From: Chloropicon primus
Taxonomy: Eukaryota
Length of the DNA stretch: 64,000 nt
Assembly (NCBI GenBank): GCA_023205875.1
Contig: CP060759.1
Span: forward strand, 868,001-932,000
Reading direction: 5' to 3'
Part shown: positions 1,199-59,200 of the stretch, in pieces
Layout: each line of letters opens with the position of its first letter
Numbering within the stretch: position 1 is the first letter of the stretch
The notes under the pieces: model-generated
Database searches by the model: none
Seen by the model: the letters and a program-made list of their open reading frames with translations, nothing else
Told to the model about the DNA's origin: nothing
Translations under genes and position numbers: made by a program

Positions 1199-3187
1199 AT
1201 GCCCTTGTTGAACAACTTTAGAAAGAAGTCGAGACCCGCGGTCCACTCAGGTCTACTGGTACGTGAAAGGGACACACTCCTCGCTGCGAGTTCCTTGGTC
1301 ACCTTTCTAGGCCCGAGTCTTTCTGACACGGTTCTCTTTCTCTGCACCTTTCTTGTGGCCTGACCTCTCTGCGCCCCACGCCCACGCAACAGGGCAGCGA
1401 AAGCCCCAGCAGTGCTTCGGCAGATGTCTTTTCGCCTCCACCTCCACCCGTGAGAGCGGAGAGTCCACCGACGACAGAGCACCACGTCTCGGGACCGGCT
1501 TCCACGGACTCTTACCTGCAGTTAGGAAACCACGTGAGGGCACTGGTAAGTCGCTGTCGCACTGGCCCTGCAGCCCGAAGAGGCTTTTTGTTCTTGGGCC
1601 CCGTGCAATGTGGAGACAGACTTTCCACCACGTTGTTCACGGCCCTGCTGCTGGGTGTTCCCTGCTGACTGAGCGCGAACTTGTTTGTTGACTCTTTCTG
1701 TCCAGGTTCGGGAGGCCACGAGGAAAAAGCTCAAGGACGTGGACCATGACGCGAGCACGCGAGTGGTCAATTTCGTTAAGCACAACCAATGCCCCGTCGT
1801 CCTGGAGGAGATGGCAAAAATTTTGTGCGAGAAGCTGAGCTCCAACTGGGCCAACAAGCAGTGGCTAGCGGTCAAACTCACGGATAGACTGTACTCGTCC
1901 GACGCCAAAAACTTTGACGGCACGCAAGACATGGTGGTGCAGGAGCTCACCATGTTGTTCCAGAAGCACACGCAGCTGCACCATCCGACGAGCGACAAGT
2001 GCAGGATAGAGGCATCGAGACTGCTTCAGAAGATGACCGGCCTGGCTCCCCAGGTGCAGGTGAACCAGATGATGGGCGGGCACCTCGTGTTCGCGCCCGC
2101 GGGAGGAAGCGTGCCTCCCCAACTCAGCATGAATTTTCCACACCAAGCCGCTGCTGGCCAACCCGGGGGCGCGCTGGAGGGCGATCAATTCTTCCAGACT
2201 TTGGTGGGGAACGGGCGGAGCGTCCACGCGCGGCCCTCCCCGATGACCGTGACCCCGGCCGCCTTTGTGGATCCCAACGCCCTCAAGAGGGAAGTCTTGG
2301 AGAAGGCCGGGATGACCAACCAGCACGCTGACATCTTGCAGGAACTCCTGTGCAACTTCAGCACGAGCGATTCCTCGGAGCAGGGGGAAGAAGCCGACAC
2401 TCTGGAGATGTTGAGCGAGCTCTCCGAACAGTCCAAGGCCCTTCTGTCGGACATCAACGGCCTGGTTCTGAAATGTCAGGAGCACATCGAGTCCCGAGGC
2501 ATCGCCCAAGCCGTGGAAGAGTCCACCATGGCGATCGACAAGCTGAAAGACGCGCTGGACTTGTACGAAGACGTGAAGCACACGAGGCAGATGATGCTAA
2601 GGCGGACGGGTGGGTCGCAGGGGGCGTTGGCGGCGGGATCCAGCCAAGCGTCGAGGGGCGTGGTCGACGGCGTCCCGGTGTACGGCGACCACGACCCGGG
2701 GTCCTCTCGAGGCGTGGCCCCGACACCTCCTCCCGCCTCGGCGGCGCGGGCGAGCACTCGGGTAGACACGAACCCATTCAGGCGTCTGACTCGGGACAAC
2801 GACTCGGACGGTCACCAGGCAGTCGGTAGGCAAAACCAGGGGAGGCCCAGAGGCAGCTCACAAGAAACCTCCACCGCGAAGGGACCAGGACCCGCAACAA
2901 AGTCGTCTCCACCACTGATTGACGTCAACCAAGATGCCGGGAGCAGCAGCCAGCGATCGATGGGGGAGGCCAGTCAGCCGGCTTTCGCGGCCTCGGGCAG
3001 CCAGGACCAATCCAAGGAGATGCAGCAGCTCATGGGACTTTTTGACACATCGATGGACTTGCTAAGCAGCAGCGGCAGCGCCGGTGGTGATGGAGGCGAA
3101 AAGCTCGAAAGCAAAAGCAGAGGGAGCAACGTCGGGGCCATTGCAATGCCACCCGGTCCCTCGAATCCCTTCGACAGGGTCGAATGA
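1199..3187 (+). CDS. Putative VHS/GAT-like (TOM1-like) trafficking adaptor; probably intron-containing 5' part
   Basis: Main exon ~1706-3187: helical N-terminus, GAT-like helical bundle, low-complexity tail with two NPF motifs (TNPF, SNPF). Upstream GT..AG intron-like segments; exon structure and start not resolved. Confidence 0.4.
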
Positions 3188-3415
3188 AAGATTGATGCGG
3201 CTTCAATTAATCCAGTTTCACCAAGATCTTCTTCTTGCCAATTCTCCGCCCCAGTGTTGGAGGTTTTCCCCTGTTGGTGGGATTCCAGTGTATACCAGTT
3301 TGGTCACACCCAAAGGACAACCCCCTAAGCGTTTTCTCGTGTTCTCACTTGCTGGACAAGGCCAATCTATAGTTACGAGGAGTTACGAGCAGCGAGTGAA
3401 ACCCTAATAACCGTC

Positions 3416-5584
3416 ATGGCGCGATCAGGGAAGCGCCGTAAGAAAAAGGAGAAGCAGGGGAGTGGCTCGACGAGTTCCACAAGGAGGTCGCACTCTGGCG
3501 AGAGTCATGCTCAGGGCGCTTCGAAGTCGGGGCAGGAGTCTCCGACGACGGAGCCGTTACGTCGGTTCTGGAATCAGGCGTTGAAGTGGCTCTACGAGAA
3601 GTGCATGCTTCCTATCGCGGACGACCCCGCCTCTGCGGGTGAGGGTTCGAGCACGCCTCGCAAGAAGCGGGGGGGGAAGCGGAAGGAGAAGCCGCTGGAC
3701 GACCCCGCCTCTGCTTTCGAGGAGGGTTCGAGCACGCCTCGCAAGAAGCGGGGGGGGAAGCGGAAGGGGAAGCCGCCGGAGGCGGCTTCCTCTGCGGGTG
3801 AGAGTTCGAGCTCGTCAGGCAAGCCTCGCAAGAAGCCTCGCAAGAAGGGCAAGAAGAAGAACAAGAAGAAGGGTAAGAAGAAGAAGAACAAGAGGGGGAA
3901 GAAAGCAGGGAAGCAGCCGGGTGGCTTGGCGGACGACAGCGTGAAGAAGACCTGGTTCTCATCGATGAAGAGAGAACTTGAAGAGGTAAAGTGTCCGAAG
4001 ACGGGATGGAGGTCGTGCTTGAACCTTCCAGAAGATTCTGTGGTATCCGTCGAGACATTGCAGCCGCCCGCCAAAAGGAAGAGGGGGCAGAAACTGAAGA
4101 CCTCCAAGCTATTGTCGGAGCGAACGGTGATACGGACGAGGAAGCTGAGGATGCGCTTGAACCCTGAGCAGGCGAAGTGCCTTTGCAACTGGATGGGAGC
4201 TGCGCGTTTCACATACAACAAGTGTTTGGAGGCGGTCAAGAAGGAGCGTTTTCCGCTGGTTTGGACCGTCCTGCTGGACAGATTTGTGACGGCCAAACCT
4301 CGAGGCCCTGAGGTCTTTGAGGGCCTGGAGAAAGAGCTGAAAGAAATCCAATGCTCTCCACGGCCATGGACAAAACAGGAGGCAGAGCTTTTCGCGGCCA
4401 GAGAGAAGAGACTCGAGAGCCAAATTGGAGGCAGACGATTTCGCGCCGAAGTGGCCAAGGACCGGGACTACGTTAGCGGGGCCTTTGTAAATCAGAAGCA
4501 TCCTTGGCTGAAGGATACCCCCTGTGCCATCAGACAAGCTGCCGTGCGAAGTCTCATCAAGGCATGGGATTCGAACATCGCGAAGCAGGAAGCGATGAAG
4601 GAGCGCGGCGAGGAGAAGGGGCACCGCTTCGTTCTCAAGTATCGTCAACGTCAGCAACCGAGTTCTTGGACCATTGAAATTGATGCAAGAGAGTTAAAGA
4701 ACGTGGAGACGATCGAAAGGCCAAACACGAGACACAAGGATGACACCAAGCACAAGAAACGACGCAAGTGGACCAAGCTGGAGGTGTTCAAGGAGAAGAT
4801 GGCCGGCGGGCCCCTGTACTTGACGGAGGAGATCCCCGGGGGCAAGATCGAGGGTGCCGTGAAGATCACAAGAAATCGCCTTGGGCAGTTCCACATGCAC
4901 ATTCCCATCGCGACGCCATGGGATCGCCTGCCACCCCTGAAGCCTGAGAACAAGCGGAAGGTTGTCGCCCTGGATCCGGGAGTCAGGACCTTTCAGACGT
5001 CGTACTCGCCGCAAGAAGGCGTCGGGGAGTATGCCACGGGCGAGCGAGGCTTCGCGAGGCTGTTCAACCTCTGCTGGAGGATTGATGAGATCATTTCCGA
5101 GCGCGAAGACCCAAAGGTGAAGCTCCCTTACCTCGACCGCCGCGACTTGAAGAGACAGCAATACGCCTGCATGGAGAAACTTCGAGGTCTGACGAACGAG
5201 CTTCACAAAAAGGTAGCCAACGATCTATGCAGGAGGTTCGACACAATCCTCCTCCCGGAGTTCAAGTCCCAAGACATGGTGAAGAAGAACAACAACGGGA
5301 GACGCCGAGTGATCAGGAAGAAGACGGCTCGCACGCTCTTGACGTTGAGGCACTATGCGTTCAGAACGTTCTTGGCTTCCAAGGTGCTCTTGCACGGCAG
5401 TGAGCTGGCGATCGTGACGGAGGAGTACACCTCCAAGACCTGTGGCAAGTGCGGACACATCAAGGACAACCTGGGTGGAGCAGAGGTGTACAAGTGCCAG
5501 AAGTGTGGCTTCAAGTGCGGTCGGGATGTGAACGGGGCACGCAACGTCCTCCTGAAGCACTTGCGTCAACCAAAAAGTGTGTAA
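3416..5584 (+). CDS. Fanzor2 (eukaryotic TnpB-like RNA-guided endonuclease)
   Basis: HTH_OrfB-like RTRKLRMRLNPEQ..WMGAARFTYN; RuvC-I VVALDPG (D at 4973); RuvC-II region ILLPEF plus alternative glutamate VTEEYTSKTC (5420); Zn finger CGKC..CQKC; RuvC-III RDVNGARN (D at 5525); Lys/Arg-rich N-terminus. Confidence 0.9.
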   Translation: MARSGKRRKKKEKQGSGSTSSTRRSHSGESHAQGASKSGQESPTTEPLRRFWNQALKWLYEKCMLPIADDPASAGEGSSTPRKKRGGKRKEKPLDDPASAFEEGSSTPRKKRGGKRKGKPPEAASSAGESSSSSGKPRKKPRKKGKKKNKKKGKKKKNKRGKKAGKQPGGLADDSVKKTWFSSMKRELEEVKCPKTGWRSCLNLPEDSVVSVETLQPPAKRKRGQKLKTSKLLSERTVIRTRKLRMRLNPEQAKCLCNWMGAARFTYNKCLEAVKKERFPLVWTVLLDRFVTAKPRGPEVFEGLEKELKEIQCSPRPWTKQEAELFAAREKRLESQIGGRRFRAEVAKDRDYVSGAFVNQKHPWLKDTPCAIRQAAVRSLIKAWDSNIAKQEAMKERGEEKGHRFVLKYRQRQQPSSWTIEIDARELKNVETIERPNTRHKDDTKHKKRRKWTKLEVFKEKMAGGPLYLTEEIPGGKIEGAVKITRNRLGQFHMHIPIATPWDRLPPLKPENKRKVVALDPGVRTFQTSYSPQEGVGEYATGERGFARLFNLCWRIDEIISEREDPKVKLPYLDRRDLKRQQYACMEKLRGLTNELHKKVANDLCRRFDTILLPEFKSQDMVKKNNNGRRRVIRKKTARTLLTLRHYAFRTFLASKVLLHGSELAIVTEEYTSKTCGKCGHIKDNLGGAEVYKCQKCGFKCGRDVNGARNVLLKHLRQPKSV
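3620..3815 (+). repeat. ~78-81 bp in-frame tandem repeat (about 2.5 copies) in the Fanzor N-terminus
   Basis: GACGACCCCGCCTCTGC...TTCGAGCACGCCTCGCAAGAAGCGGGGGGGGAAGCGGAAGG at 3620 and 3698, partial copy ~3790; encodes DDPASA..EGSSTPRKKRGGKRK. Confidence 0.9.
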
Positions 5585-5745
5585 CTCCTCAGGGTTGCAC
5601 ATACGTTTGTTAGTACGGGCTGCCGTGCGCTAAGTGGGCGGAAGTATTCGTTCATGTACGGTGGAATGGTCGTGGTAGGGCCGAATTACCCTGCCGAGAA
5701 ACTTACAAACTCGGTGAAACGACCTTTGCAGAAAACTAACAGGTA
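5585..5745 (+). ncRNA. Candidate Fanzor omegaRNA scaffold
   Basis: Directly 3' of the Fanzor stop; hairpin TTAG-TACGG/CCGTG-CTAA (~5610-5633); nested stems GGTCGT(5668)/ACGACC(5719), GGTAGGG(5674)/CCCTGCC(5689), CCGAG(5694)/CTCGG(5710). Confidence 0.6.
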
Positions 5746-5929
5746 AGTTGTGGCCGGTCTTCTTCTCTCCGTGTTTCTCTCTTTCAGTGGAAAGGAGAAC
5801 TTGCCTTTGTGCTTCCAGTATTGACTGTGAATTCCCTACCGTCCTTTCGTGACTTTTCTGTGTGCTGTTTTGATCTGATGTCTGAACACCATAACACCCA
5901 GGGTAAACGGCAAACAAATCCTGCGACAG

Positions 5930-6157
5930 AGTCTCTCTCTCGCTCGCTCTCGCTCTCGCTCTTTCAAAGCCTCTCTCTGCCTCGCTCTCTGTCTCCTTCT
6001 CTCTCTCACTCTGTCTGAAACTTCATTGAGAAAGCGTCCGAGGGGGTGGGAAAGTCACGAGAGAGCGAACCGAGGAGGGAGAGAGGGAGAGAGCCTCGTC
6101 TTCCCCTCGCCCCAGACGTCACACACACACACACACACACACGCTCACACACACATA
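5930..6157. repeat. CT-rich and (CA)n microsatellites
   Basis: Imperfect (CT)n at 5930-6015, (AC)n at 6119-6157. Confidence 0.9.
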
Positions 6158-6224
6158 CCTTCACGGTCTGTCAACAACAGGAGTGATGCTGACCTACTAG
6201 ACGGGCACCTCCTTTGCAGGCAGG

Positions 6225-8927
6225 ATGTTGTCGCAGGGGTACTGGTTTTTGGAAAGGGATTGCGTGAGGGCCGTGAAGTTATTCTTGTCGAGTGCGTCTT
6301 GCGTTCTCTCCGTCGCAGCAGCGGCTTTGGCGTACACCTTCCTCGCCGGAGCGAATGAGGCGCCCCCTGCCTTCAGAGGCCTCGCTTTCCCTGGGTACAC
6401 ACACACTCCTTTCAGTCTGCTGTTGATATGCGTGAGCGTCGCGGCGAGCTATCCTCAGCCGTGGCCCTGGAGGGAGAGGAGGGTGAAGGTCCTCTTCCTG
6501 CTGCACTTGTTTCTTTGTGCGATAACAACTTTCTTTTCCATTGAGCTCGCCAGGAACATCTTCCACTACGTCAACGACACGAGGGTGTTTCGAGAGCCGC
6601 ACGGGGCACTCGTGGAAAGGACAAGCTGGATAGCACAGAAGCTCTTCGAATTGGCTGGGCTGCTGATCGGCCAGTCGATGGCTGTGCTGCTGCTGGCTCT
6701 CCTCCAAGTCTTCGAGTGCTGCCGAGAGACCATCTGGAAGGGCAAACGGACCGAGTCATCGCCATCTTTGCCGAGAAGGAAGTCGAACAAGAACGACTAC
6801 AACAGAGTTTACAGCGAAGTCAGCCCAGTGCCAGACGGCGAGAAGCTCGACGACGATGATGAGGACGAGGAAGACGAGGACGAGGACGACGACGATGCCG
6901 GGGGTGCAGGGGAGGGAGGTGGCAAGGAGGGCGTGCTCGCGCTGGAGATCGAACAACCGGGGTCAGAGGAGTCAGAGGAGAAAGAGGTGCCGTTCAAATA
7001 TCTCAACTGGCTCTCCCGATGCATCAAGTGGCTCTCTTTGGGTGTGGGCTTGGGCTTTTTCGTCTATGGTTTGGTGATCGCCACGATGACCTTCGCCCCC
7101 ATCGCATCTTCAACGTCATGGGATCAGTCCGCGGAACACCGGTGCAACCCAGGCTCGTCGCGGTGCATGCTTCCGTTTCCCAGCCTGCACCTTCTGAGCC
7201 AGAGCAATGAGACGGCGACTGGGTGGCGGTTCGACGTTCGAGATCCGGGCGTGGGCGTCTATCTGAGGACCTTCAAGTTCCTCACTTTCGAAAGCACGAG
7301 AGATCTGGATGGCTTCAGCCCCATGTCGGCGGTCGTGTTCGAGATGCCTGAGGCGGCCGAAGTGTCTCCGTATCCAGGCAACTACTTTTCGCCCGAGGAA
7401 TCCTCGGAAACAATTCTCATTGACACCACCGTCAACAAAACAATTCCTCACTTCCTTTACAAGAAGGACGGCCTCGTGTACATGCAGCCCAGGGAGCCGT
7501 TCGGCTTCGACCGGCGAATCGTGGCAGGCGTGAGGCAGTTGAAAAACGCGGCCGGAAGCGTCATCTCGCGAAAGCCAAACCCCGCTCTGGCCGGGGAGGC
7601 CGTCGTGAAAGCCCTCGAATCCTTCGGTTGGAGATCGGATGATGAGCTTCAGCTCTGCTGGGAATTCCACACCGCCAGCTGCAGCTCAACGCTTGTTCCA
7701 GGCATGGAGCTGAGGAGGTTCGCTCTCGAAAAGCACAGGGAAGGAAAAGTCAGAAACAAGGTCATCAAAGCGATTGACGAGAGAGACCTCTGCTCGAGTG
7801 ACGACGAGAACCAGACGGCGTACACAATTCACGGCAAGATCGAAAGCCCGAGCTTCCTCCCGATATTGAGCAATACCGCAAACCATGTCCGCGACGGGGA
7901 GAACTACTCGTGGACGGAGTACACCGTGCGAGTTCCGTGCTCGATTGCCACGAACGCGAGCGGGAATGTGACGATAGTCCAGTACGGTCACGGCTTCCTC
8001 GGGGACAGATCCGAAGTCTTGGGGCACTACCTCGGAGAGCTTTCGAACTTACACCGATGGATTTTAGTTGCGGTGGACACCCAAGGATTGACGCGCCACG
8101 ATTTGTTGTTCCTGCTGCAGCTCTGCCTGAACCAAGCTTCGTTAGCGGCGCCTCTGACGGAAATGGTGTGGGAGAGCCACATCAACAGAATGCTTTCTGA
8201 GATGATACTGGTGAAAGAGCTCAGGGAGGAGGTCGCCCCAATTTTGGACGTGTTGAACGGGAGCGTGGACGTCAAGTACGCTTACTATGGCAACAGCCTC
8301 GGAGCGATCACTGGACTTTCGTACGTATCCATGCAAGAGACGACCAAGCGAGCCGTCCTGGGTGTGGGTGGCCTTCCCTACAACTTGATTCTCAGGTTCT
8401 CGGACCAATTCTCGTTCTTCAAAACTCTGCTCCGGGCTCAATTCTTTGACTCGACGAGCGTGGAGCTCTTCGCGCTGATTTCTCAGAGCTTCTGGGATCA
8501 GATAGGAAGCGGTTGGCTTGGGTGCTATTCGCAGGGCGAAGACTTTCAGTGCGGGGGCGCGGGTTACGACTGGGACCATTATCAGAACAAGAACTTTTTC
8601 CTGCAAGACGGCGTGGTGGATGACTCTGTGCCAGCGATCTCGGGCCACCTTGTGGCCAACGCGGTCAACGCCTCGGTGGTCAATCCGGTCCGAGGGATTC
8701 CACTGCTCCGCAACGAAACCGAAGCCAGGTCGCCGAATTCATTTCTGGTGGAGTGGCTGCCAGAACGCAACCTGCACCGCTGCTTGCGTTTGCAACCGGC
8801 AGCAAAGGCGCAGATAGGAAATTTTATCACCAATGGCTGGATCACGGGAGACGAGTGCGGAGCCAACAGCACTTGCGTGGCCGACACCAGCATCGATTCG
8901 TCGTGCGACGTCGACATTGGTCAATGA
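6225..8927 (+). CDS. Membrane-anchored alpha/beta-hydrolase (bacterial lipase-like)
   Basis: Several N-terminal TM segments, acidic loop, then CMLPFPS / LDGFSP motifs, YGHGFLG oxyanion-type motif and YYGNSLG nucleophile elbow. Confidence 0.6.
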   Translation: MLSQGYWFLERDCVRAVKLFLSSASCVLSVAAAALAYTFLAGANEAPPAFRGLAFPGYTHTPFSLLLICVSVAASYPQPWPWRERRVKVLFLLHLFLCAITTFFSIELARNIFHYVNDTRVFREPHGALVERTSWIAQKLFELAGLLIGQSMAVLLLALLQVFECCRETIWKGKRTESSPSLPRRKSNKNDYNRVYSEVSPVPDGEKLDDDDEDEEDEDEDDDDAGGAGEGGGKEGVLALEIEQPGSEESEEKEVPFKYLNWLSRCIKWLSLGVGLGFFVYGLVIATMTFAPIASSTSWDQSAEHRCNPGSSRCMLPFPSLHLLSQSNETATGWRFDVRDPGVGVYLRTFKFLTFESTRDLDGFSPMSAVVFEMPEAAEVSPYPGNYFSPEESSETILIDTTVNKTIPHFLYKKDGLVYMQPREPFGFDRRIVAGVRQLKNAAGSVISRKPNPALAGEAVVKALESFGWRSDDELQLCWEFHTASCSSTLVPGMELRRFALEKHREGKVRNKVIKAIDERDLCSSDDENQTAYTIHGKIESPSFLPILSNTANHVRDGENYSWTEYTVRVPCSIATNASGNVTIVQYGHGFLGDRSEVLGHYLGELSNLHRWILVAVDTQGLTRHDLLFLLQLCLNQASLAAPLTEMVWESHINRMLSEMILVKELREEVAPILDVLNGSVDVKYAYYGNSLGAITGLSYVSMQETTKRAVLGVGGLPYNLILRFSDQFSFFKTLLRAQFFDSTSVELFALISQSFWDQIGSGWLGCYSQGEDFQCGGAGYDWDHYQNKNFFLQDGVVDDSVPAISGHLVANAVNASVVNPVRGIPLLRNETEARSPNSFLVEWLPERNLHRCLRLQPAAKAQIGNFITNGWITGDECGANSTCVADTSIDSSCDVDIGQ

Positions 8928-35713: not shown

Positions 35714-35979
35714 GGGTGCTAGAATCGGGGTGGCACTTCGTGCGCGGGCGGGGTGGGGGCATTCTCCGCCCGGGTCGGTGCCCGGGAAAGGGACAAGGGG
35801 GTAGACGGGTGTGCCGTTGGTTTTTCACACAAACATCTTTAGAAGTAGAACAAGGAGGAGGTCGTTGGGGCATCTCATTTTTCAACAAATAAAACATGCT
35901 ACAACATAATACAATACTGCTCCTTGCTGACGCGCTTGGCCAGGCTGACCGTGGCCGCGGTTTAGGTTTCTGGTGGTTC

Positions 35980-36486
35980 TCAGAATATTCCAAACCTCCG
36001 CGGGGCTGGCTTCCCGCTCCGCCCTTCGAGCTCCTCCAGCCTGCTCAGCATCTCCCTCTGCTTCAGCTCGAGGTTGGCAATGATCGCCATCTGGTGTTCT
36101 TGCAGCCTCATCCTCTTCTCCTCCTTTTCTACCCTCCGCTTCTCTTTGTTCACCCTCTTCAGCTCGTCCCTCCTGTTGCTCCGGTCGTACTCGTACAGCA
36201 GCAGGCCCCCACCAACAGTGTAGATAAAACTTTCGGAGAAGAACTTCCCCGCCAGGTTCAGCGCCCGCTCGTCGTTCAGAGGCGATATCTCTGCGCCCTT
36301 CTTCTTCTCCTGGCCCCTTGCTGCCCTGTTGATCCTCACGTTCCACCTGTGGAGGACTTGAGCCCAATCGATCGCCCGCTGCCTCACCACCGGGTGGGAG
36401 AGCATGTAATCCTGGAAGACGTACGCCAAAGGCTTCGACGCCGTCTTCACCGTCATGGTGAACACTTTGATCGCAAGCTGCGCCAT
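35980..36486 (-). CDS. OPA3: OPA3-like protein
   Basis: VKTASKPLA, PLNDERALNLAGKFFSESFIYTVGGGLLLYEY and a coiled-coil tail. Confidence 0.85.
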   Translation of the reverse strand: MAQLAIKVFTMTVKTASKPLAYVFQDYMLSHPVVRQRAIDWAQVLHRWNVRINRAARGQEKKKGAEISPLNDERALNLAGKFFSESFIYTVGGGLLLYEYDRSNRRDELKRVNKEKRRVEKEEKRMRLQEHQMAIIANLELKQREMLSRLEELEGRSGKPAPRRFGIF

Positions 36487-36822
36487 CACAACCCCCGCAC
36501 CAGCCCCCTCCACACACCGTCCTCAACCAAGGCCACCACCAGGCTCCAATGCAATCCAAACCAAACCAAACCCGTTGCCTCCCTCTCCACCAACCCCCTT
36601 CTCTCTCTCGCCACCTCCGCCACTCCAGACGGCGGCAAACTCGTCGACTCCGAGCCTTGCCCCTCCCTTGCCTCGTCCCCACCGTCCTCCGCTTCGGGAC
36701 CGGGACGACGAACTCCGCTTCGACACGACCACCTTCGCTCCGCTCCTCGACAGACAGAGAGAGAGCGCGCGCGCGAGGGTGGTGGTGGTCGTGGGGAGGC
36801 AAAGGGCGGAAGGGGGGGGAGG

Positions 36823-39800
36823 ATGAAGAGGGAGAGGTATCCGATAGTCCTGAAGGCCCTTTATGGAAACGATGTGCAAACGTTGCGAGAGGCGGTGGAC
36901 TTGTTGGCGCCGTTCGAGACGGAGGACCGTCGGGGTTCGACGGTAGGGGACTGGAGGAGGGAAGATGATCATGTGTCCTCCCTCCCCTCGAGCTCGTACA
37001 ACAGAGTGTCGCAGGACGGGCTGGACATGCTGTTGGACGAGACGTTCGTGGTGTTCGAGCGGAGGGCGCCCGACCTCGCGACGTGGTTCCAGCGGGCAAG
37101 GAACAGGCGAGAGAGCGGTAACGGTCGCTACCTCGAGGCGCGGAACTGCCAGAGGCGCTTGGTGTTGGAGGTCGTGAACGAAAAGTTCAAAGTAGGAAAG
37201 TCTGGGGGATCGGGGAACACGGACGTGTTGTGCATAGGGTACAAGAAGGTCAACGGCGCGAGCGGCAGGGGAAGGTCCATGAACGCCATGGACCTGCCGT
37301 GCTCCAGCAACGGGGGTGGTCATCAGGGCAACATCCAAAGGACGTTTAACTCCTCCGTTCCCGCTGATCTGCTCTCCACCACGGCTTGGCAAGGTCTACT
37401 GACAGTATTAGGGCGAGACATCCTCAAGTACATCTTGATGCACTCCTCAGTCTTTGTCACGCAAACCCAGCCGCGTGGCAGAAAGTACTATTTGCAGGCT
37501 TGTGGGTACCCGGTGAACAGCTACGTGTACAAGAAGGCGTGGCAAGCGAAGCACCTGCCGCCGCCAGCTCCCGGTGTGACCAAGGGCCTTAGCACGGAGC
37601 CGAGCGATCCCGAGGAGAGACTCTTGCAGTTCAGTGATATATCAACGAACCCAGAGCTAGACGAGTCGTACAGGAGAACTGTTAAGGACCAGATGGAGAA
37701 GGGCGCAAGGTGGTGGAACGACTTGGGAGAGTTAGAAGACGTGAGGATGTTAGATTCCGAGGGCAGCTTGCATTTCGGCGACGACGAGGGCGGCCTTGTA
37801 CCGCTCGCGGAGTTGTTCGATCAAGAGCCCTCGCAGCCGCGAAAGAGGAAGGCTGTCCGTCTTCCGGCTTGGAAGAGAAGGAAGGAGGCAAAAATGACTG
37901 AGCGTCAGGACCAAGAGATGGTCGAACCAGCCGCTGCACTCCCCAACCCCACGACGCATGGGAGGACCACAGCCATGAATGCATTCGAAGGGAATGGAAG
38001 TGCTGCCCCAGCCTGGAAGAAACAGCCCAAAAAGGATATTTCAGGATCGTTGAAGGTTCCAAGGCCTTACTTGTTTAATGTGAAGTGGTGCCTAACTTAT
38101 ACAGCTGGTTCAGGTTTGCCACGCAAACACATTTTGTTGGGGCTGACCAGCGACGTTCCCGGCAGCATGCAGCTGCTGCAAGACATATTCTCGAGCGAAC
38201 TGAGGCGGGACTCTGGGAAGGCAGGGATCGCGGCGGTCAGGAGTGGATCTCAAAAGCCGCCAGGTGCAAAGGTTCCCAATTGCGTGAGGCACTTGTGTCC
38301 AATGGCAAGGCACTTGATCAAGGCAGCGCGAGTCTGTCCCTATTTCAGGTTGCTCAAGGAATCTTGCCCAGATCCAGTCGAAATGAAAAGGAAAGGAATT
38401 CTTTTCAGCGAGAGCGAGAATGTCTTGGATTACAGCACGTCCCCGAAACAGTTAGGGGATTTTGTTTGGTCCGTTATCACATTCATCACTCCGAAGATAC
38501 TCTTGGGTAGCAAGTCCAACCGAAGGGCGCTGAGGAATGCGATCCACAAGTTTCTGTGCAAGAAGCGGTACGAGGAGATGACCATGCAGGAGGCCGTGTT
38601 CAATATGAAAGTGAAGGAATTCGACTGGTTCTGCCCGAGCAAACAGAAGGATCAGAAGAAGAGAACAGCAAGTCAGCACAGGGACTATTCCAACTTACTG
38701 AAAAGGTGGATCTTTTGGGTGTTCACTCGACTGGTCAACCCTTTGGTACTGACGAACTTCTATGTGACCCAGGCGGAGGGCCGCGGCTGGAAGGTCTTTT
38801 ACGTTCGCCACAGTTGTTGGAAAAAGGCATGCATGAGCCACATGGATGGCCTATGCAATGGAGGCAAGCGCATGTTGAAAGAGGTCGAGAAGGGTGATCT
38901 GAAGCAAGTGCTGCAAAGGAACCATTTGGGCGTAAGCCACCTCAGATTTCTTCCCAAACGCAGCACGGGCGTGAGACTTATATTAAACCAGAGCAAGCGG
39001 ACAGACCTTAGTTCTCATCTCAGCGAGCTCGACCTTCCCGGGTCCTTGAAGGAGGTCCTAGGACAATTCAAACGGCGGCCTATCAACAGTTTCTTGAGGG
39101 AGGCCCATTGCGCGATCCAGCACGAGGTAAACGCCCTTCCCGGTGTTTTGGGTACGTCGGGCTTGAGCTTGAGCGAGGCCCAGCGGAAGCTCAGCGCGTT
39201 CCTACACAAGCAGGCGGCGAGAGGTGCCAGTCAGAAGTTCTATGTAGTCTCCTGCGATGTGGAAAAAGCCTATGACTCTGTGGACGCAAACCACCTTATC
39301 TCCATGGTCGATGACATATTCCAGCAGGACGAATACGAGTTCTTCAAATTCACACGCACGAATTTCGGGCACGGGACTCCTTTCACAAAGACGACGCAGG
39401 CGTGTGGAGCCTTGCCGCCCAACAGCGATTTCGAGGTCGGTTTTTCCAAGCATGCCAATGAGGTGCTCCTGAACAAGGCCTCCAGCTCGAAGGTGAAAGC
39501 TTCAGCGCTCCAGGCGATTGTGAGAGAGCACTTGCTGTCAAACGTGATTCTTGGGTGGGGGAAATTCTACAAGCAGACGGTGGGGATCCCTCAAGGCTCG
39601 ACCCTGTCAGCCTTGCTGTGTTCCCTTTACTTGGCGAATTTGGAGGTGAACAGAATATTCCCATTGATGGATATTGAGTCGGAGAACGTCGATGCTCTGA
39701 GGTTCCACTTGAGGCACAGCAAGGGCGTGCAAGGCCACGGCGTCGGGGGGGAGGGCGGCCCTCCACCTCTGTCTGCAACCCTGAGCACGGATCCTTCTCA

Positions 39801-40665
39801 CGGCACACTGAGAGCATCAACCCAGGCGAAGGCGACGTCGCACCAGAGCACAATCCTGAGGTATGTGGACGATTTCTTGTACATCACCAGCAGCGAAGAG
39901 GACGCCAGGAAGTTCTTGAAAGTGATGCACCAGGGCTTTCCGGAGTACAACTGTTACATGAACAAGAAGAAGACCAGTTGCAACTTCAGCGTGGACGGAA
40001 GCGATGCGAGCGGGTCAAGGAATTTGTGGATCGACGGAAAAGGTTCTGCGTTCCTGAAGTGGTGCGGCATGCTGATCAACGCGAACACGCTTGAGATTCA
40101 GAGGGACCTCACCCAAGACACGGGGGGTGTCACGAACACTGTTCTGATCCCTCCGCAACCAGGAAATCACCTGAAGGCGAAGCTTTACCGATTCATGCAG
40201 TTCGATCTCAAAAATGCCTCGCTCTTTGACTTCGTCATCAATTCTCCCGAGGTGGTGAGGCTCAACGTGTACCAGGTGTTCCTTGTGGGCGCCACCAAGT
40301 GCGAATACATGTTGAGCCACATGGTCAGCTCCCCGCCGCTCGTAGACATCTTGTACGACGCGATCTCCAGCTCGTTGTCCCACGTGGTCTTTAGGGTCCG
40401 GAAGCACCAGGACGAGCTCAGGCAGCTGATGCGAGACCCGTCCTGCGACGCTTGCAAGAACGGGGTGGTGAAAATAACCCCGGAGAGCCACATCAGGTGG
40501 CTGGGCTACCAGGGTTTCCTGGGGGTCTTGAAAAGGAAGCAGACGAGGCACGCCGCGATCATCGCACGCTTGGAGTGCGACCTGAAGGACCCCGATTTCG
40601 AGTGCCTTCACGCCCGGCTGGCGGGAACCTTGAACCCCGACTTGAGGCGGTTTCGTCAGGTCTGA
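36823..40665 (+). CDS. TERT: Telomerase reverse transcriptase, intronless
   Basis: TEN GQ-like YLQACG, CP motif CPYFRLLKESCP, T motif NFYVTQ, motif 1 LRFLPK, A CDVEKAYDSV, B' GIPQGSTLS, C LRYVDDFL, E WCGMLIN; start set at MKRERYP because the upstream in-frame extension overlaps OPA3. Confidence 0.95.
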   Translation: MKRERYPIVLKALYGNDVQTLREAVDLLAPFETEDRRGSTVGDWRREDDHVSSLPSSSYNRVSQDGLDMLLDETFVVFERRAPDLATWFQRARNRRESGNGRYLEARNCQRRLVLEVVNEKFKVGKSGGSGNTDVLCIGYKKVNGASGRGRSMNAMDLPCSSNGGGHQGNIQRTFNSSVPADLLSTTAWQGLLTVLGRDILKYILMHSSVFVTQTQPRGRKYYLQACGYPVNSYVYKKAWQAKHLPPPAPGVTKGLSTEPSDPEERLLQFSDISTNPELDESYRRTVKDQMEKGARWWNDLGELEDVRMLDSEGSLHFGDDEGGLVPLAELFDQEPSQPRKRKAVRLPAWKRRKEAKMTERQDQEMVEPAAALPNPTTHGRTTAMNAFEGNGSAAPAWKKQPKKDISGSLKVPRPYLFNVKWCLTYTAGSGLPRKHILLGLTSDVPGSMQLLQDIFSSELRRDSGKAGIAAVRSGSQKPPGAKVPNCVRHLCPMARHLIKAARVCPYFRLLKESCPDPVEMKRKGILFSESENVLDYSTSPKQLGDFVWSVITFITPKILLGSKSNRRALRNAIHKFLCKKRYEEMTMQEAVFNMKVKEFDWFCPSKQKDQKKRTASQHRDYSNLLKRWIFWVFTRLVNPLVLTNFYVTQAEGRGWKVFYVRHSCWKKACMSHMDGLCNGGKRMLKEVEKGDLKQVLQRNHLGVSHLRFLPKRSTGVRLILNQSKRTDLSSHLSELDLPGSLKEVLGQFKRRPINSFLREAHCAIQHEVNALPGVLGTSGLSLSEAQRKLSAFLHKQAARGASQKFYVVSCDVEKAYDSVDANHLISMVDDIFQQDEYEFFKFTRTNFGHGTPFTKTTQACGALPPNSDFEVGFSKHANEVLLNKASSSKVKASALQAIVREHLLSNVILGWGKFYKQTVGIPQGSTLSALLCSLYLANLEVNRIFPLMDIESENVDALRFHLRHSKGVQGHGVGGEGGPPPLSATLSTDPSHGTLRASTQAKATSHQSTILRYVDDFLYITSSEEDARKFLKVMHQGFPEYNCYMNKKKTSCNFSVDGSDASGSRNLWIDGKGSAFLKWCGMLINANTLEIQRDLTQDTGGVTNTVLIPPQPGNHLKAKLYRFMQFDLKNASLFDFVINSPEVVRLNVYQVFLVGATKCEYMLSHMVSSPPLVDILYDAISSSLSHVVFRVRKHQDELRQLMRDPSCDACKNGVVKITPESHIRWLGYQGFLGVLKRKQTRHAAIIARLECDLKDPDFECLHARLAGTLNPDLRRFRQV

Positions 40666-53237: not shown

Positions 53238-56200
53238 ATGCCAGAACCAAAGGTTAGGCAAGCTGTCCGTGGCGATGCAATAAATGTTCGCAAAATCGAT
53301 CACCTCACCTGGCCTGAGAATCTGTGGCTTAAAGACAAGGACTTTCAGTTCTACTTCGAATCGTATCTCGAGGGTCAGTTCGTAGTGGAGTGTGGCGACA
53401 GAGTCGTTGGCTGTCTATTCACTCAAAGACTTGACAACGAGTCAACTCTTCTTGATGATGGAAAGACAAGCTCAGACTTTACATCTTTGCACCAGGGCGA
53501 GGGCAAGGTGATTCAGTTGATAAGGATATCTGTCCTCCCCCAGTACGAAGGTTTAGGTTTAAGCCATGCCCTTATCGAAGGATCATTGGAACACTTAAAA
53601 AAACAACAGGGATCAATTGAAAAGGTTGTTGCAGTGACAAGGTGTTCTCAGTTCAAAGCAGCTGGCGCATACCCATACGATGACTACGTCTATAGCGGTC
53701 GCGATCCCACGATAGCTTTCCATGTTGGTAGGGGTGCTGAAGTTGTGAAGATACTTCACAACTTTCGGCTTGAAGACACTCAAAATGATGGACACGGTGT
53801 TCTTATTCGATACAGCTTGAAGACAAACACCGATTCCAACTTTGACCAGTCAACTAGTCAGCTTCAGTTTAGTCGTGATGACGCCGAATCTCGTATCAAA
53901 GACGCCGTTCGGAGAATAGCACAATCTTCTGAAGAGCCTGCTCTAGATGAACCATTGATAGAGTATGGTTTAGATTCCATTGACTTTAGCGGTTTAAAAG
54001 CCAGCTTGGAAAACATCTTTTCCATCAGCTTGGAAGCTACCTTCTTGTTTAGCTATCCAACCGTCCAACAGATCGCGGCCTACGTGGTAGATCAAAATAA
54101 AAATACCGGTAGCAAAGCCAAAGCTTTGGAAGTTGAACTCCCTGATGGATCCTTGACAAAAAGGAGCCCCAATTACTCAGAAGCTATTTGGATAATAGAC
54201 ACTGCTGAAAGACTTCCCGCTGCCATTGAAGTTGGCGGATTTAAAGAGGCAGTTTCTCACGTCCCTTTGAACCGGTGGGACCCCACCGGTTTTGAAGAAG
54301 TCATTGCCCAACAAAGTGGTGTCACTTCTGGTTCTTTTGGTATCTTCCTGCACCTTCATGAGTGTGATATTCATGGGATATCACAGAAAGAGGCTCTTCA
54401 GACCGACCCACAGCAATTGCTCATCATAGAAAATGCTCAGAATCTGAAACGTGCTTCTTGTCCAAAGCACGACGGGGAAATCGGTGTAGCTGCTGCAGTG
54501 TCGAACTTTGACTTTGCAGTACTTCAACAGAAGATCAAGCCGGTTGAGTCGCAGACACATAGCACCCTCATTGGTTCAGACCTGTCTGTCTGCTGCGGGA
54601 AAGTCTCGTACCTTTTGAATTTCAATGGGCCAAGTTATGTGGTGAATACAGCATGCTCCTCTTCTCTTGTGGCTACAAATGCAGCGATGCACTGTCTCAG
54701 GAATTTTGAGTGTCAGCTTCACTTCGTTCTCTCTGCAAGCACTATTCTATCCCCCCACGTAATGGTGGCTTACGCCAAAATGGGAATGCTGTCTATCGAT
54801 GGGAGGTGTCAATCCTTCGACCAGCAAGCGAACGGATACGTGCGAGCAGAAGCAAGCGTTGGTGTAAACCTGGGAATGGCCTCTGGTTCAGGAGTTGCCA
54901 TTGTTGCATCATCCGTACAACAAGATGGAAGGAGCGCAGGACTCACAGCACCAAATGGAATTGCTCAGCAAAAGCTACTGCTTCGCACTTCAATGGATGC
55001 TGATGTGCCTTTGAGTGACATTCAACACCAGGAGATGCACGCAACTGGTACACCGCTCGGCGACCCCATTGAGTACCAAGCATTCAAGCAAGCTCTTAGA
55101 TCGTCGTCACATGAAATGGGCTTTATCATATCAGTGAGTGGCACGAAAGCCATAGCAGGGCACGGGGAGCCATGTGCAGGGCTTTCGAGTACTCTCCGAA
55201 TCATCAAATCATCATTGAAAGCAAAGAAAATAGTCAACAACCGATTGAGATCAATGAACAAACACTTTGGCCCTGATATGATGGGGAGCAACCTCATTTT
55301 TCCTACTGTGAATGGATCAGCAGCACTCAGTAGCTCATACGCAGGTATCAATTCATTTGCATTCCAAGGCACGATCGCCCGCCTTTTGCTCAAATTTGAT
55401 AAAGGCAATGAAAGACCAGCGACACGCAAGGCACTCTGCAAGAAGCTCATCTCCTTCAAATGCGTTTCATATTGTAGCAGCAAAGTATTGGTAAGCAGCG
55501 GATCAAAAAAACTTTGCTTACATCTGAAACCAAAATTTGGACAGTTCACAATAGAAGGAAAAAGAGTCTTAACATTTGCCCAGATGTACTCATATCTTCA
55601 AATCGGCTACAATGATCTTTGCCAAGAGACCACCAAACAGAAAGCTGTAACGGCCGATATGGTTCAAACAAGAGTCATGCACATCGACTACAGGCAACAT
55701 CAAATGATGCAATGTACGGTGGACACAGTGACCGGACAAGTAGAACTCCAATCCCAAGCAGAAGGGAAAAGTCACAAAACCTGGAATCTCCAAGCCATAT
55801 GGAAGAAACCAGTCAAACACTTGCCAGAGCGCCAAACCACACACCAAGATCAAAACGAGTGGAACAAAGGCATCATGGGTATAATGCACCACAATCAAGC
55901 TGCACACACAGCCAATGCAATTGCAACAGTCGCCAAAACATCAAATGACCTCTATGATTACACCGTCAACCCAGCTGTGGGCGACGCAAATCTACAGCTT
56001 GGTGCCGTGGAAAGCGTGATTCGTTTGGCGAGCCAAGACAATGCTAGTCAAGAAACGCAAGTACCAACGGGTTGCCATGCCTATTACATGGGCGACCAGT
56101 CAGATGCTCCAGCAGCATACACGGCAGTCTGTCAGAATGGCTCCCAAGCTGGCATCTCAAGCCATAGACTAAAAAGTCTATGTGAAGAGATCAACTGTGC

Positions 56201-59200
56201 CTCAGTTCTCAATTTGCAAACCAAAGCAGCATTTAAATTGCAAAGTGCTTTGAATGCAGCCAACAGCCAACAGAAAGTGCAAGAAAAGGACATGCTCTTA
56301 TCGGCTTTGGTGTGGTCAGCCTGCTATGCGACCCCTCTGGACTGCGCTGCTCATCAAAATGCAATAATCGCAGGATCAAGGGACGCACAAGAGAATGTGC
56401 TTCTCGTGAAACTTGGAGACGCGCAATCCAATTTGGAGCATCCTCTCAAGATTGCATGCAGAAATGCAGGAGCTCTCTATTCATCATCTCATGTGGATAG
56501 TCCTGAAATGCAAGAGTACCTGACAAACACCTCAAAGTCGGTCCACGTTGTTTGCCTTGTCTCGCACCAAGCAAATGTTGCAAAGCAACTTGTAGGCCTT
56601 GCCAACCTTGTCAAAGCGGTGAACAAGTCAAACATGGAATCACCTAGTATCACTGTGGTTTTCTTGGATTCACAAACGACCATGAACGTCCAACACAACA
56701 CCTCAAAAGCATTGTGGGGAGCATGCAGGACGATGAGAATGGAGTACCCATCCTTGCAATTGACAACCATTCAAATGGATGCACACATGGACAAGAGTCA
56801 GGCAGCTCTTTACCTCTTGTCAGAAATCCAAAACAAACATTCAACTGAAAAGGAAGTCATGTACAAGAATGCGACACGATACATCAATACCATTGTGGAG
56901 AAGTATCCTTCTGCATCACAGCATCTCTCCCTCAATCCACATCTGGAAAAGCTCCAGAGAGGATCATATGTTATCACAGGAGGTCTTGGAGGTCTGGGTC
57001 TTGTGACCGCGCAACTTCTTGCAGATATGGGAGCGACAAGCATATCTCTCCTCTCAAGAAGTGGCATCATTCAGCGCACGGACCAAAACCTTAATGCCAT
57101 TCTCGACAAAGTAAGAGAGAAAGCCAATGTGGAGGTTATCGCATGTGATGTGAGCAAAGAAGATCATGTGCGCAATCTCTACACAAAGCAAAACCATCCT
57201 TGTGTGGGAATTATACATGCTGCCGGTGTCTTACGAGATGGCCTTGCTGCAAATCTCAACCATACTCAGGTCCAACAGGTATTTGACCCAAAGATCAGTG
57301 GCGCTTTGCATTTGCATCACAACACACTCCTGCAGCCATTGCAGGTATGCATCATGTTCTCCTCCATAGTGTCACTCTATGGAAACATTGGTCAGACCTC
57401 CTACAGTGCAGCAAATACCTATCTTGATACTTTGGCTGCTCTAAGGCAAAACCAAGGCCTTCCTGCGGTCAGCATACAATGGCCAGCAATATCTGGCATT
57501 GGCATGTGGGAAGGTCTATCAAGTGTCCACAAGAAAACATTTGAATTCAACCTTCCCGTAAAGGCCGTTATATCGTGCCTTCAAAATCTTGTGTCAAAGA
57601 AATCCTTCACAATCACAACCGTGACGATTTTACCAAGGTGGATGATCTACGGAACCAGGGAAAAGAACAAAGCACACATGGCAGCAAAGGCGGATCCAAA
57701 TGAAATCCAGCGGCAGCCAACAAGCGGAAGAAGCCAGAGCGTCAAATTCACATCTGTAGCTGTGTTGACTTCCCAAGTGCAAAATACAATTGAGCAAGCA
57801 GTCATAGATACTATTGGAGAAACCATTGACACGGAAAGTCCTCTCATGGAAGCAGGAGTCGACTCGCTTGCTTCATCAGAGCTTATCAACAAGATCAATG
57901 ATGACATGGGAACCTCTTTGGGGCCCACAATCTTGTTCGACTATCCAACAATTCAGGATCTCACACAGCACCTTGTGCAGACCCTCAAAGGACCTGACGC
58001 TACAGATCACGCCATTGAGGCTGTGGAGCGCATCCCAAACCATGATCCAATGCATGCTGTGACAACAACAATGCTGTCTTCTGCTATCAGATATCCAAAC
58101 CATACAAATTCAAACCAAAGGTTCTTGAATGTCCTTAACAACCAGTCCGAGCTTTGCTCAGTCACTCCACTTCAACGGTGGGACCGCATGGATTGGTATT
58201 CCTCACAGGGCTATGGGAACGACATCTATGTGCCCTTTGGATACTGGCTTCCAGACCTCTGGACCTTCCAACCTGATGCACTAAGCATGACTTCCGCAGA
58301 ATCCCTTTATGTGGACCCACAAGGAAGGAAGCTCCTGGAGGTCACATGGGAGGCCATGTACAACACTCCTCTATCTTCAAACAAACATGCCAGAACAAAT
58401 ACAGGTGTTTATGTAGGATGTTGTCAACAGGATTTCCAAAAAAATATCCATCACATGACAGACCCAGGGAAACAAATACTGGCATCCATAAGCTTCCTTT
58501 GTGGTCGTGTTTCTTATGTGATGGGCTTCAAAGGACCATGCATCAGCATAGATACTGCATGTTCCTCCTCGCTTGCAGCAACTCACTTGGGCAGGACAGC
58601 CATTATAGCACATGAATGTGATACAGCAACAATAGCAGGAACAAATATAATGATTGCACCACAAACAACGCAAGCTATTTGCAATTTGCAAGCCCTTGCC
58701 GTGGATGGAAGATGCAAAACCCTTGATGCAACTGCAAATGGATATGGCCGTGCCGAAGCTATTGCTGCCGTAATCATTGCAAATGCAAACGATACACACA
58801 CGAACATGCTCAAAATGCCTGTCAACATCGTTGCATCTTTTGTGAACCAAGATGGAAGATCAAGCAGTCTGACTGCACCAAATGGGCCATCACAGTCAAC
58901 ACTCATCTCATCTGCTTTGAGGCAAGCAAATCTGAAGCCAGAACAAATCAACCATGTTGTCATGCATGGAACAGGAACACCTCTGGGTGACCCAATTGAG
59001 GTTGGTGCCCTGGGACAAGCATTCCATTCAGATGACAAAGTTCATATGCTTGCACTTGCTGCAGTCAAGGTTGCTTTCGGACATACAGAAGGAGCAGCAG
59101 GACTCACGGGCCTACTTAGTGCAATGCAGTCGTGTAGCACGTTATGCATTCAACCGGTTACCGCATGCAGAAACATGAATGTTCATGTGCAGGGTGCAAT

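Follow-up and report, generated by a model that had tools for sequence, protein, structure and literature searches.

How does a Fanzor keep a reprogrammable guide once it has left IS607 elements for a eukaryotic transposon whose end separates the guide-RNA scaffold from the flanking DNA? The question is raised by a 64,000-nucleotide (nt) stretch of DNA from the marine green alga Chloropicon primus (contig CP060759.1, positions 868,001 to 932,000; hereafter the window, whose coordinates we use) that carries a Fanzor2 open reading frame (ORF). The published answer is that the transposon end and the target-site duplication (TSD) are absorbed into the scaffold (PMC10711439). A second, eukaryote-specific answer, if our reading is true, is that the end is spliced out. 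The gene had been described from its letters, in what we call the original prediction, as a stand-alone nuclease gene, either a non-autonomous element or domesticated. We find that it is almost certainly a copy of the multicopy Fanzor2* transposon and that splicing at the border of its predicted scaffold is very probably real. We further propose, with the case for and against evenly balanced, that the transcript is spliced from the scaffold-end donor to the first AG in the duplication, which would give the predicted nuclease a flank-derived guide against the empty site. The element and its gene are laid out as follows.

3416 to 5584, plus strand: Fanzor2 ORF, an open frame of 722 amino acids
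3255 to 5896, plus strand: Fanzor2* transposon, non-autonomous, 2642 base pairs (bp), termini TGTTG...TAACA
3250 to 3254, no strand: left TSD, CCCAG, a 5-mer repeated after the right end
5897 to 5901, no strand: right TSD, CCCAG, holding the predicted 3′ splice site

The element ends (TGTT/AACA) form a perfect 4-bp inverted repeat, match at 8 of 20 terminal positions and both fit TGTNR (TGTTG, TGTTA); a repeat search of the window found no long inverted repeat between them and no long direct repeats at them. Because the pair 3255/5896 ranked only fourth by terminal matches among 362 candidate left and right ends paired through a 5-bp direct repeat, a repeat search alone is insufficient to choose the ends. 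In assembled contigs (X1 to X6), foreign flank is found before 3255, depth ends at 5896, and a single-copy X1 contig enters the left end for 30 nt and stops at 3284. Three of the six published insertions over 1 kb have identical ends, all called heterozygous (PMC6731263, Supplementary Data 8); both that reach the right end carry it complete, and at one of the three a deletion of 31.7 kb is also called. The breakpoint of that call, on chromosome 17, lies a few bases from the left end of the element (PMC6731263), which may cause adjacent deletions. An argument for homing from zygosity was rejected, as low heterozygosity would also lead one to expect just two clean heterozygous insertions beside some 25 assembled copies.

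The window Fanzor belongs to a 90% protein cluster of 46 members; of the 40 read, 39 bear a name, and the 14 other members listed are C. primus proteins on many chromosomes. The top protein hits are called 'putative IS605 transposase [Chloropicon primus]', and 99%-identical proteins are likewise named C. primus. The genome paper of 2019 annotated 25 such genes, with RNA-seq depth (PMC6731263), and the genome holds about 25 or more copies. Element contigs are ~28–39 times deeper than the left-flank contig in X1 and X2, a ratio that is not a copy number. No empty-allele joint (3254 to 5902) was listed in X1 to X4; the missing cover at 5903–5924 and 2583–3169 carries no weight, as records are filtered. 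Loose ends at 3362–3408 suggest a diverged subfamily that has a different 5′ leader, and those at 4016 an internally deleted copy in which 4016 is joined to a scaffold-end variant.

The gene is therefore neither stand-alone nor domesticated: it is cargo of a 2642-bp element with a duplication and many copies, and of the two options first offered the non-autonomous element is the one that survives. Nor is it novel, as had been implied, since the C. primus family has already been described as Fanzor2*, in an element that moves by cut and paste, is non-autonomous and has a variable 5-nt TSD and degenerate terminal inverted repeats (TIRs), and for which no autonomous partner was found (PMC10711439; preprint 10.1101/2023.08.09.552727); near-identical proteins in the tables of PMC10711439 mark the window element as the same family. 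No intact recombinase or transposase was found among 36 window ORFs scanned with Pfam, a scan that excluded shorter ORFs and a polyketide synthase frame. The annotation entries listed hold no retroelement gene, only TERT and one KO-labelled 'integrase'. The element end motifs were absent from the supplements of PMC10711439 and PMC10530073, in cells limited to 400 letters.

The guide-RNA scaffold is predicted immediately downstream of the gene.

5595 to 5742, plus strand: predicted guide-RNA scaffold, 5′ boundary approximate, ending in AG at 5741–5742

In relatives, the loop of a hairpin after the stop codon pairs with a segment that follows As, and two further bases come next. In the window, the loop (5609–5614) of a hairpin at 5604–5617 pairs with 5735–5740, and the two bases after this pseudoknot helix are AG, where relatives have GG or CG. 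Over eight loci, pairing holds in 46 of 48 cells of the 6-bp long-range helix, with two-sided changes at five of its six pairs; the score was matched by none of 500 shuffles and lies above all slid controls, with some inflation from related sequences and from a structure derived from them. The blind scan recovered the helix followed by NG in 19 of 54 loci, where 8.0 were expected; the window and four of its five closest loci are among the 19. For comparison, in ApmFz2 the scaffold positions just ahead of the guide, −4 to 0, belong to the pseudoknot (PMC11832414), and IStrons of the IS607 type have CGG at their end (PMC13565253). Since the helix ends at 5740 and is followed by AG, the first guide base would be expected at 5743, which leaves 154 nt of element up to the right end and places the putative scaffold boundary at 5742. 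Unconstrained folds were no better than shuffles (5585–5765, z −0.91; 5743–5925, z −0.17), and Rfam gave no match beyond one chance-level hit. A viral-looking contig among the related loci (L003; 736–838, 1319–1421 and 3301–3660) carries, besides a Fanzor and a duplicated 270-bp block, two reverse-strand copies of its downstream RNA-like segment, which run on into a different sequence; these are possible stand-alone guide RNAs.

At this predicted border, 159 nt after the Fanzor stop codon, lies a splice donor.

5743 to 5748, plus strand: 5′ splice site GTAAGT (AG/GTAAGT) at the predicted scaffold/guide border, where X3, X4, X5 and X6 contigs leave

Six loose ends with five distinct sequences, from four studies (the RNA-like X3, X4, X5 and X6), leave the element at 5742, a common start obtained after allowing for chance-matching G, GT or GTA letters; one junction sequence is common to X4 and X5. 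No junction leaving at 5742 is listed for the DNA-like X1 and X2, among loose ends above a 1% threshold. Contig depth falls across the donor in X3 (8050 to 1523–2182), X4 (1888 to 105), X5 (1280 to 170–586) and X6 (28 to 0), and goes from 3748 to 3477 in X1, but contig depth cannot rank gene parts and the drop is weak evidence. In a diverged copy in X4, GG precedes the same donor. The contigs showed no joint from the donor to five internal AGs and none skipping the whole element, and 5743 is the only donor seen in use; no joint at 5786–5787 (a 45-nt intron) or at a host-like acceptor at 6219–6220 was listed, and a junction motif was not found in the 64-kb window. The coding region is intronless, as first described, while a likely intron starts 159 nt after its stop.

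Two further features of the contigs lie downstream. A diverged remnant in X3 and X5 (window 5804–5863) exits at 5863 via AG into foreign sequence, and could be an old copy without a right end that may supply its own acceptor. A 2931-nt X3 contig covers 5970–6112, with 2756 upstream letters not placed on 2400–7000, and is perhaps a chimera through the CT repeat at 5925–5969.

On our reading the acceptor would come from the duplication itself.

5743 to 5901, plus strand: predicted spliceosomal intron, 159 nt, made up of the element's last 154 nt and the duplication to its AG, with a putative acceptor
5902 to 5921, plus strand: predicted guide of the window copy after splicing, host flank that would match the empty site

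The longest AG-free stretch in the element, 81 nt from 5819 to 5899, ends at the AG of the duplication (chance 0.007–0.033 by four controls). All five flanking 5-mers available contain AG (naive chance 0.001–0.0015) and none contains CT: CCCAG from the window, three from Supplementary Data 8 (AGGAG and ACAGA at right ends, AGGTG at a left end), and AGGAT from an X1 loose end. The mean intron length in C. primus is 152 nt (PMC6731263), against 159 nt predicted here. The 5-mers AGGAT and AGGTG, known from the left side only, predict exon starts GAT and GTG, both of which occur among the five junctions (chance 0.0045 on genome background, a value that overstates the match because exons often start with G).

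If every guide starts right after a genomic AG, the target-adjacent motif (TAM) is predicted to end in AG and is likely CAG; reported Fanzor2 TAMs are 3 nt long (PMC11832414, PMC13565253). The duplication starts with AG in three of the five copies, and in the two where the base is known the filled allele reads AAG and the empty allele CAG, a difference that would separate self from target. The predicted scaffold boundary and TAM are useful for an enzyme assay, as a construct built on the true element end would likely miss both.

The protein has the features expected of a Fanzor2, several of which had been pointed out before.

4130 to 4243, plus strand: HTH_OrfB_IS605 Pfam match, residues 239–276, E 1.9e-6
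4973 to 4975, plus strand: RuvC-I D520 (DPG)
5420 to 5422, plus strand: relocated RuvC-II E669, aligned with E467 of 9B0L and Glu in 24 of 24 rows of one alignment
5441 to 5527, plus strand: zinc finger C676/C679/C694/C697 and RuvC-III D704 (RDVNGARN at 703)
3619 to 3920, plus strand: tandem 78–81-bp units and Lys-rich tract, differing in unit number among copies and splitting the tnpA vestige described below
3399 to 3406, plus strand: AAACCCTA motif immediately upstream of the ATG, a candidate promoter element, presumably telo-box-like

The 722-residue frame is open, and the motifs named in the original prediction are all present, with LLPEF at 612 and TEEYTSKTC at 668; its HTH_OrfB-like domain is there too, not at the start but after a low-complexity, K/R-rich (29%) extension (residues 1–237) with 81-bp tandem units, whose Lys-rich tract is likely a nuclear-localization region. 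Pfam places a TNB domain at residues 646–711, and the NCBIfam guided_TnpB model matches at 92.9 bits, below its cut-off of 100. D520, E669 and D704 line up with the D324, E467 and D501 triad of the mimivirus Fanzor2 9B0L (residue numbers counted by hand off the alignment). This structure ranks first in the Protein Data Bank both in the sequence search (E 9e-20) and in the fold search (E 1.3e-14, with an AlphaFold model of residues 229–722, pLDDT 80.5), whereas the Fanzor1 SpuFz1 ranks 40 and lower; the modelled fold is compact, TnpB-like and nearer Fanzor2 than Fanzor1. The published Fanzor regular expression (DPG at RuvC-I and a Glu just before the zinc finger) is passed by the window protein, by 17 of 18 fetched C. 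primus proteins and by 104 of 116 other hits. The Fanzor2 identity first proposed thus holds, and RNA-guided nuclease function is predicted; the literature searched yielded no activity measurements on this family. The catalytic triad and the four Cys are invariant across 17 aligned copies, in which variable columns number 39 of 237 in the N-terminus and 15 of 208 in the RuvC/finger region. The copies are mosaics, with 172 of 300 site pairs failing the four-gamete test (25 sites, 14 proteins), a pattern that could come from gene conversion or assembly polishing. Four related proteins are predicted fusions that may be gene-model read-through: P0030 and P0085 with an XPG/Exo1-type nuclease, P0029 with the N-terminal region of another protein and P0005 with a foreign C-terminal tail.

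Beneath the N-terminal extension, in another frame, lies what remains of an IS607 recombinase gene.

3469 to 3651, plus strand: decayed IS607 tnpA (serine recombinase), piece 1, in another frame than Fanzor, one stop, DNA profile E 8e-10
3919 to 4077, plus strand: decayed tnpA, piece 2, one stop, DNA profile E 1.4e-10

The statement that no recombinase lies nearby therefore holds for intact genes and fails for this decayed one. A profile of the five closest TnpA proteins matched the overlapping frame (whole-frame E 3.4e-7) in these two pieces, which hold two stops in all and are separated by the repeat tract, while a broad profile from 57 TnpA loci did not detect it (E 3.3). Since the overlap with a conserved Fanzor frame aids the match, it shows descent and not selection; the vestige has two stops, an insertion and no match at the catalytic-motif end of the profile. 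A tnpA-like match occurs in 57 of 79 related metagenome loci. In L001, L002, L004 and L005, this match lies across the Fanzor N-terminus in a different frame, and all three of the frames scanned have a Resolvase match. At L002 (250–960) the Fanzor frame spans an entire decayed tnpA, a state intermediate between the intact overlap of L004 and L005 and the window. The vestige suggests that the Fanzor2 N-terminal extension arose by overprinting of the recombinase gene, and a limited literature search found no published report of this overlap. A search of viral contigs with the single window protein found no relative.

These observations can be ordered into a history. A small TG...CA element would have taken in an IS607 element whose tnpA and Fanzor genes overlapped, after which tnpA would have decayed, leaving DNA that now encodes the N-terminal extension. 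Capture would have separated the scaffold from the flank by 154 nt of transposon end, freezing the guide, and the conversion of this stretch into an intron would have restored reprogramming. The spliced RNA would read scaffold, AG, flank, as an IS607 guide RNA does, and its target on the empty allele would follow AG. If the empty allele were cut and then repaired from the filled allele, as in the established TnpB homing model (10.1101/2023.11.20.567912), the element would be kept or spread in this diploid alga. Movement to new sites would likely be in trans, by an integrase-like DDE enzyme, judging by the 5-bp duplication and TGTNR ends. That the spliceosome programs the guide in this way, with a right-end intron, a duplication-supplied acceptor and a splice-site AG that is also the TAM end, is a tentative proposal towards which we are slightly more sceptical than favourable; that an active nuclease uses the spliced RNA as its working guide we hold to be close to evenly balanced, if a touch on the doubtful side.

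A number of points weigh against this reading. All evidence from X1 to X6 comes from assembled contigs; the RNA status of X4 to X6 is a guess, and X3, labelled DNA, was read as RNA from its uneven cover. Single-copy branches in DNA could sit under the 1% threshold, and 5742 is indeed where one X1 contig stops, an end equally explained by a variant 30 nt upstream. The eight covariation loci were hand-picked from 18 printed, and the blind scan gave 19 of 54 against 8.0. The AG count is post hoc with n = 5, and of these 5-mers two are left-side only, one consists partly of reference anchor bases at a deletion breakpoint and three are error-prone long-read consensus; two published cells show 25–26 flank letters before the end, not five. 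No junction was traced to its flank in the genome, none of the five matches any of the three flanks for which long sequence is available, and the 5742-to-5902 joint of the window locus was not seen, in runs of which none, X1 included, covers 5903–5924. Purifying selection is not demonstrated, as 16 of 24 coding variants examined are non-synonymous and 8 synonymous (taken from 40 of 69 rows shown, after dropping 14 N-terminal, 1 beside indels and 1 non-coding). The main difficulty of the spliced-guide model is self-targeting: in two of five copies, the window copy and one other, CAG lies wholly inside the duplication, and with a 3-nt TAM these are predicted to cut themselves.

Four other explanations have to be weighed. 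We consider it rather unlikely that the guide comes from the unspliced transcript, as proposed for other Fanzor2* and Fanzor1, with the hairpin loop pairing with the true right end, the guide starting in the duplication and splicing either competing, as in IStrons, or maturing the mRNA through host acceptors. TGTTA at 5608–5612 is indeed complementary to the last five bases of the element (TAACA, 5892–5896), sequence past the donor is present in X3, X4 and X5, TIR and TSD are predicted to be part of Fanzor2* scaffolds (PMC10711439), and three of the five junction sequences read, to us, like coding exons. This 5-bp pairing is, however, shorter than the internal one of 6–7 bp and out of register with relatives, and it leaves unexplained why the donor sits on the ancestral end to the nucleotide and why all five flanks contain AG. 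Self-targeting and the excess of non-synonymous over synonymous variants would fit a guide that is frozen (starting GTAAGT at 5743) or absent, the Fanzor being a passenger or RNA-binding helper and spread resulting only from the mover and gene conversion; mosaic copies can also retain intact ORFs without selection on catalysis. We find this improbable in view of the invariant catalytic and Cys residues, the low variation of the RuvC/finger region and the retained pseudoknot.

Another explanation is that the 5742 junctions are genomic, a few highly expressed copies ending at the ancestral IS607 right end and making ordinary flank guides without splicing. The X1 contig end speaks for it, as do the ~7% fall in X1 depth, which has room for two or three such copies, and the omission of low-share loose ends from the listing. 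It is nonetheless quite improbable, as the break falls on a consensus donor, the window and both published right-end insertions carry the full end, tnpA is dead, the five junctions differ, and the variant 30 nt upstream explains the contig end equally well. To a single domesticated host gene we give next to no credence: the ORF is intact, lies between host genes and probably has a copy at the same locus in the published assembly, yet the 46-member cluster, 25 annotated genes, duplication, defined ends and heterozygous insertions refute this for the family.

Set beside known systems, the nuclease and the Fanzor2* element are already known, and spliced-guide formation is what is probably a new variant of guide formation. 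The string 'splic' is absent from the main text of PMC10711439, leaving aside its figures and Supplementary Figure S3, which may bear on the scaffold; the internal scaffold end, donor and tnpA vestige are likewise absent from the passages of it examined. No spliceosome-made Fanzor guide was reported in the titles and abstract beginnings searched, which covered few subscription papers. With IS607-type Fanzor2 (ApmFz2, 9B0L; L004, L005) the window protein shares DPG, the relocated Glu, the zinc finger, the fold and the terminal pseudoknot, the last a right-end RNA feature predicted here by covariation over eight chosen loci, and with ApmFz2, L004 and L005 it shares descent from an overlapping tnpA/Fanzor pair. 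Unlike these, the window tnpA is dead, a 5-bp duplication is made and the scaffold would end in AG, 154 nt inside the element end, instead of GG/CG. The element is thus not IS607 or IS607EU, which have an intact TnpA and a GG crossover without duplication, and is Fanzor2* by its TSD, short inverted termini, multicopy state and non-autonomy.

In IStrons (10.1101/2023.11.20.567912), the RNA of a TnpB element is also spliced at the scaffold/guide border, but by a group I intron that spans the whole element and whose removal destroys the guide RNA; in the window the intron would be spliceosomal and confined to the right end, and its removal would build the guide RNA, the reverse of IStron logic if true. 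Introners (10.1101/2022.06.06.494994; PMC12130899) splice out whole and spare the host gene, whereas just 154 of 2642 bp would be removed here, with little gain for the host. Both ends fit the TGTNR termini of Ginger/Tdd and Gypsy-type long terminal repeat ends (PMC2836005), with a 5-bp TSD as in TDD-4/5 and within the 4–5 bp of Ginger/Tdd; the TIRs of Ginger/Tdd measure 40–297 bp against 4 bp here, and the element, unlike either, encodes no integrase and lacks long direct repeats at its ends. If true, our reading would add a new route by which an RNA-guided nuclease outlasts its capture by a transposon whose target duplications vary.

The element sits between two host genes.

1685 to 3187, plus strand: upstream host gene, with a weak GAT-domain match (E 0.099) and a stop 68 nt before the element, which we take to be TOM1-like
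6225 to 8927, plus strand: downstream host gene, 900 amino acids, no Pfam match, identical on two contigs

Neighbours match TERT, cyclin, Myb and OSCP, a eukaryotic context as in other Fanzor2. The telomerase reverse transcriptase (TERT) lies at 35896–40665. The published annotation lists TERT as A3770_06p45070 and, as A3770_06p44890, a Fanzor copy (PMC6731263), so that P0002, which differs from the window protein P0001 at 13 positions, is probably the copy at the same locus. At the far end (53238–64000), an open frame of at least 3587 codons runs off the window at 45–48% GC, against ~58% elsewhere; its three ketosynthase-like motifs and near-identical modules point to a giant polyketide synthase.

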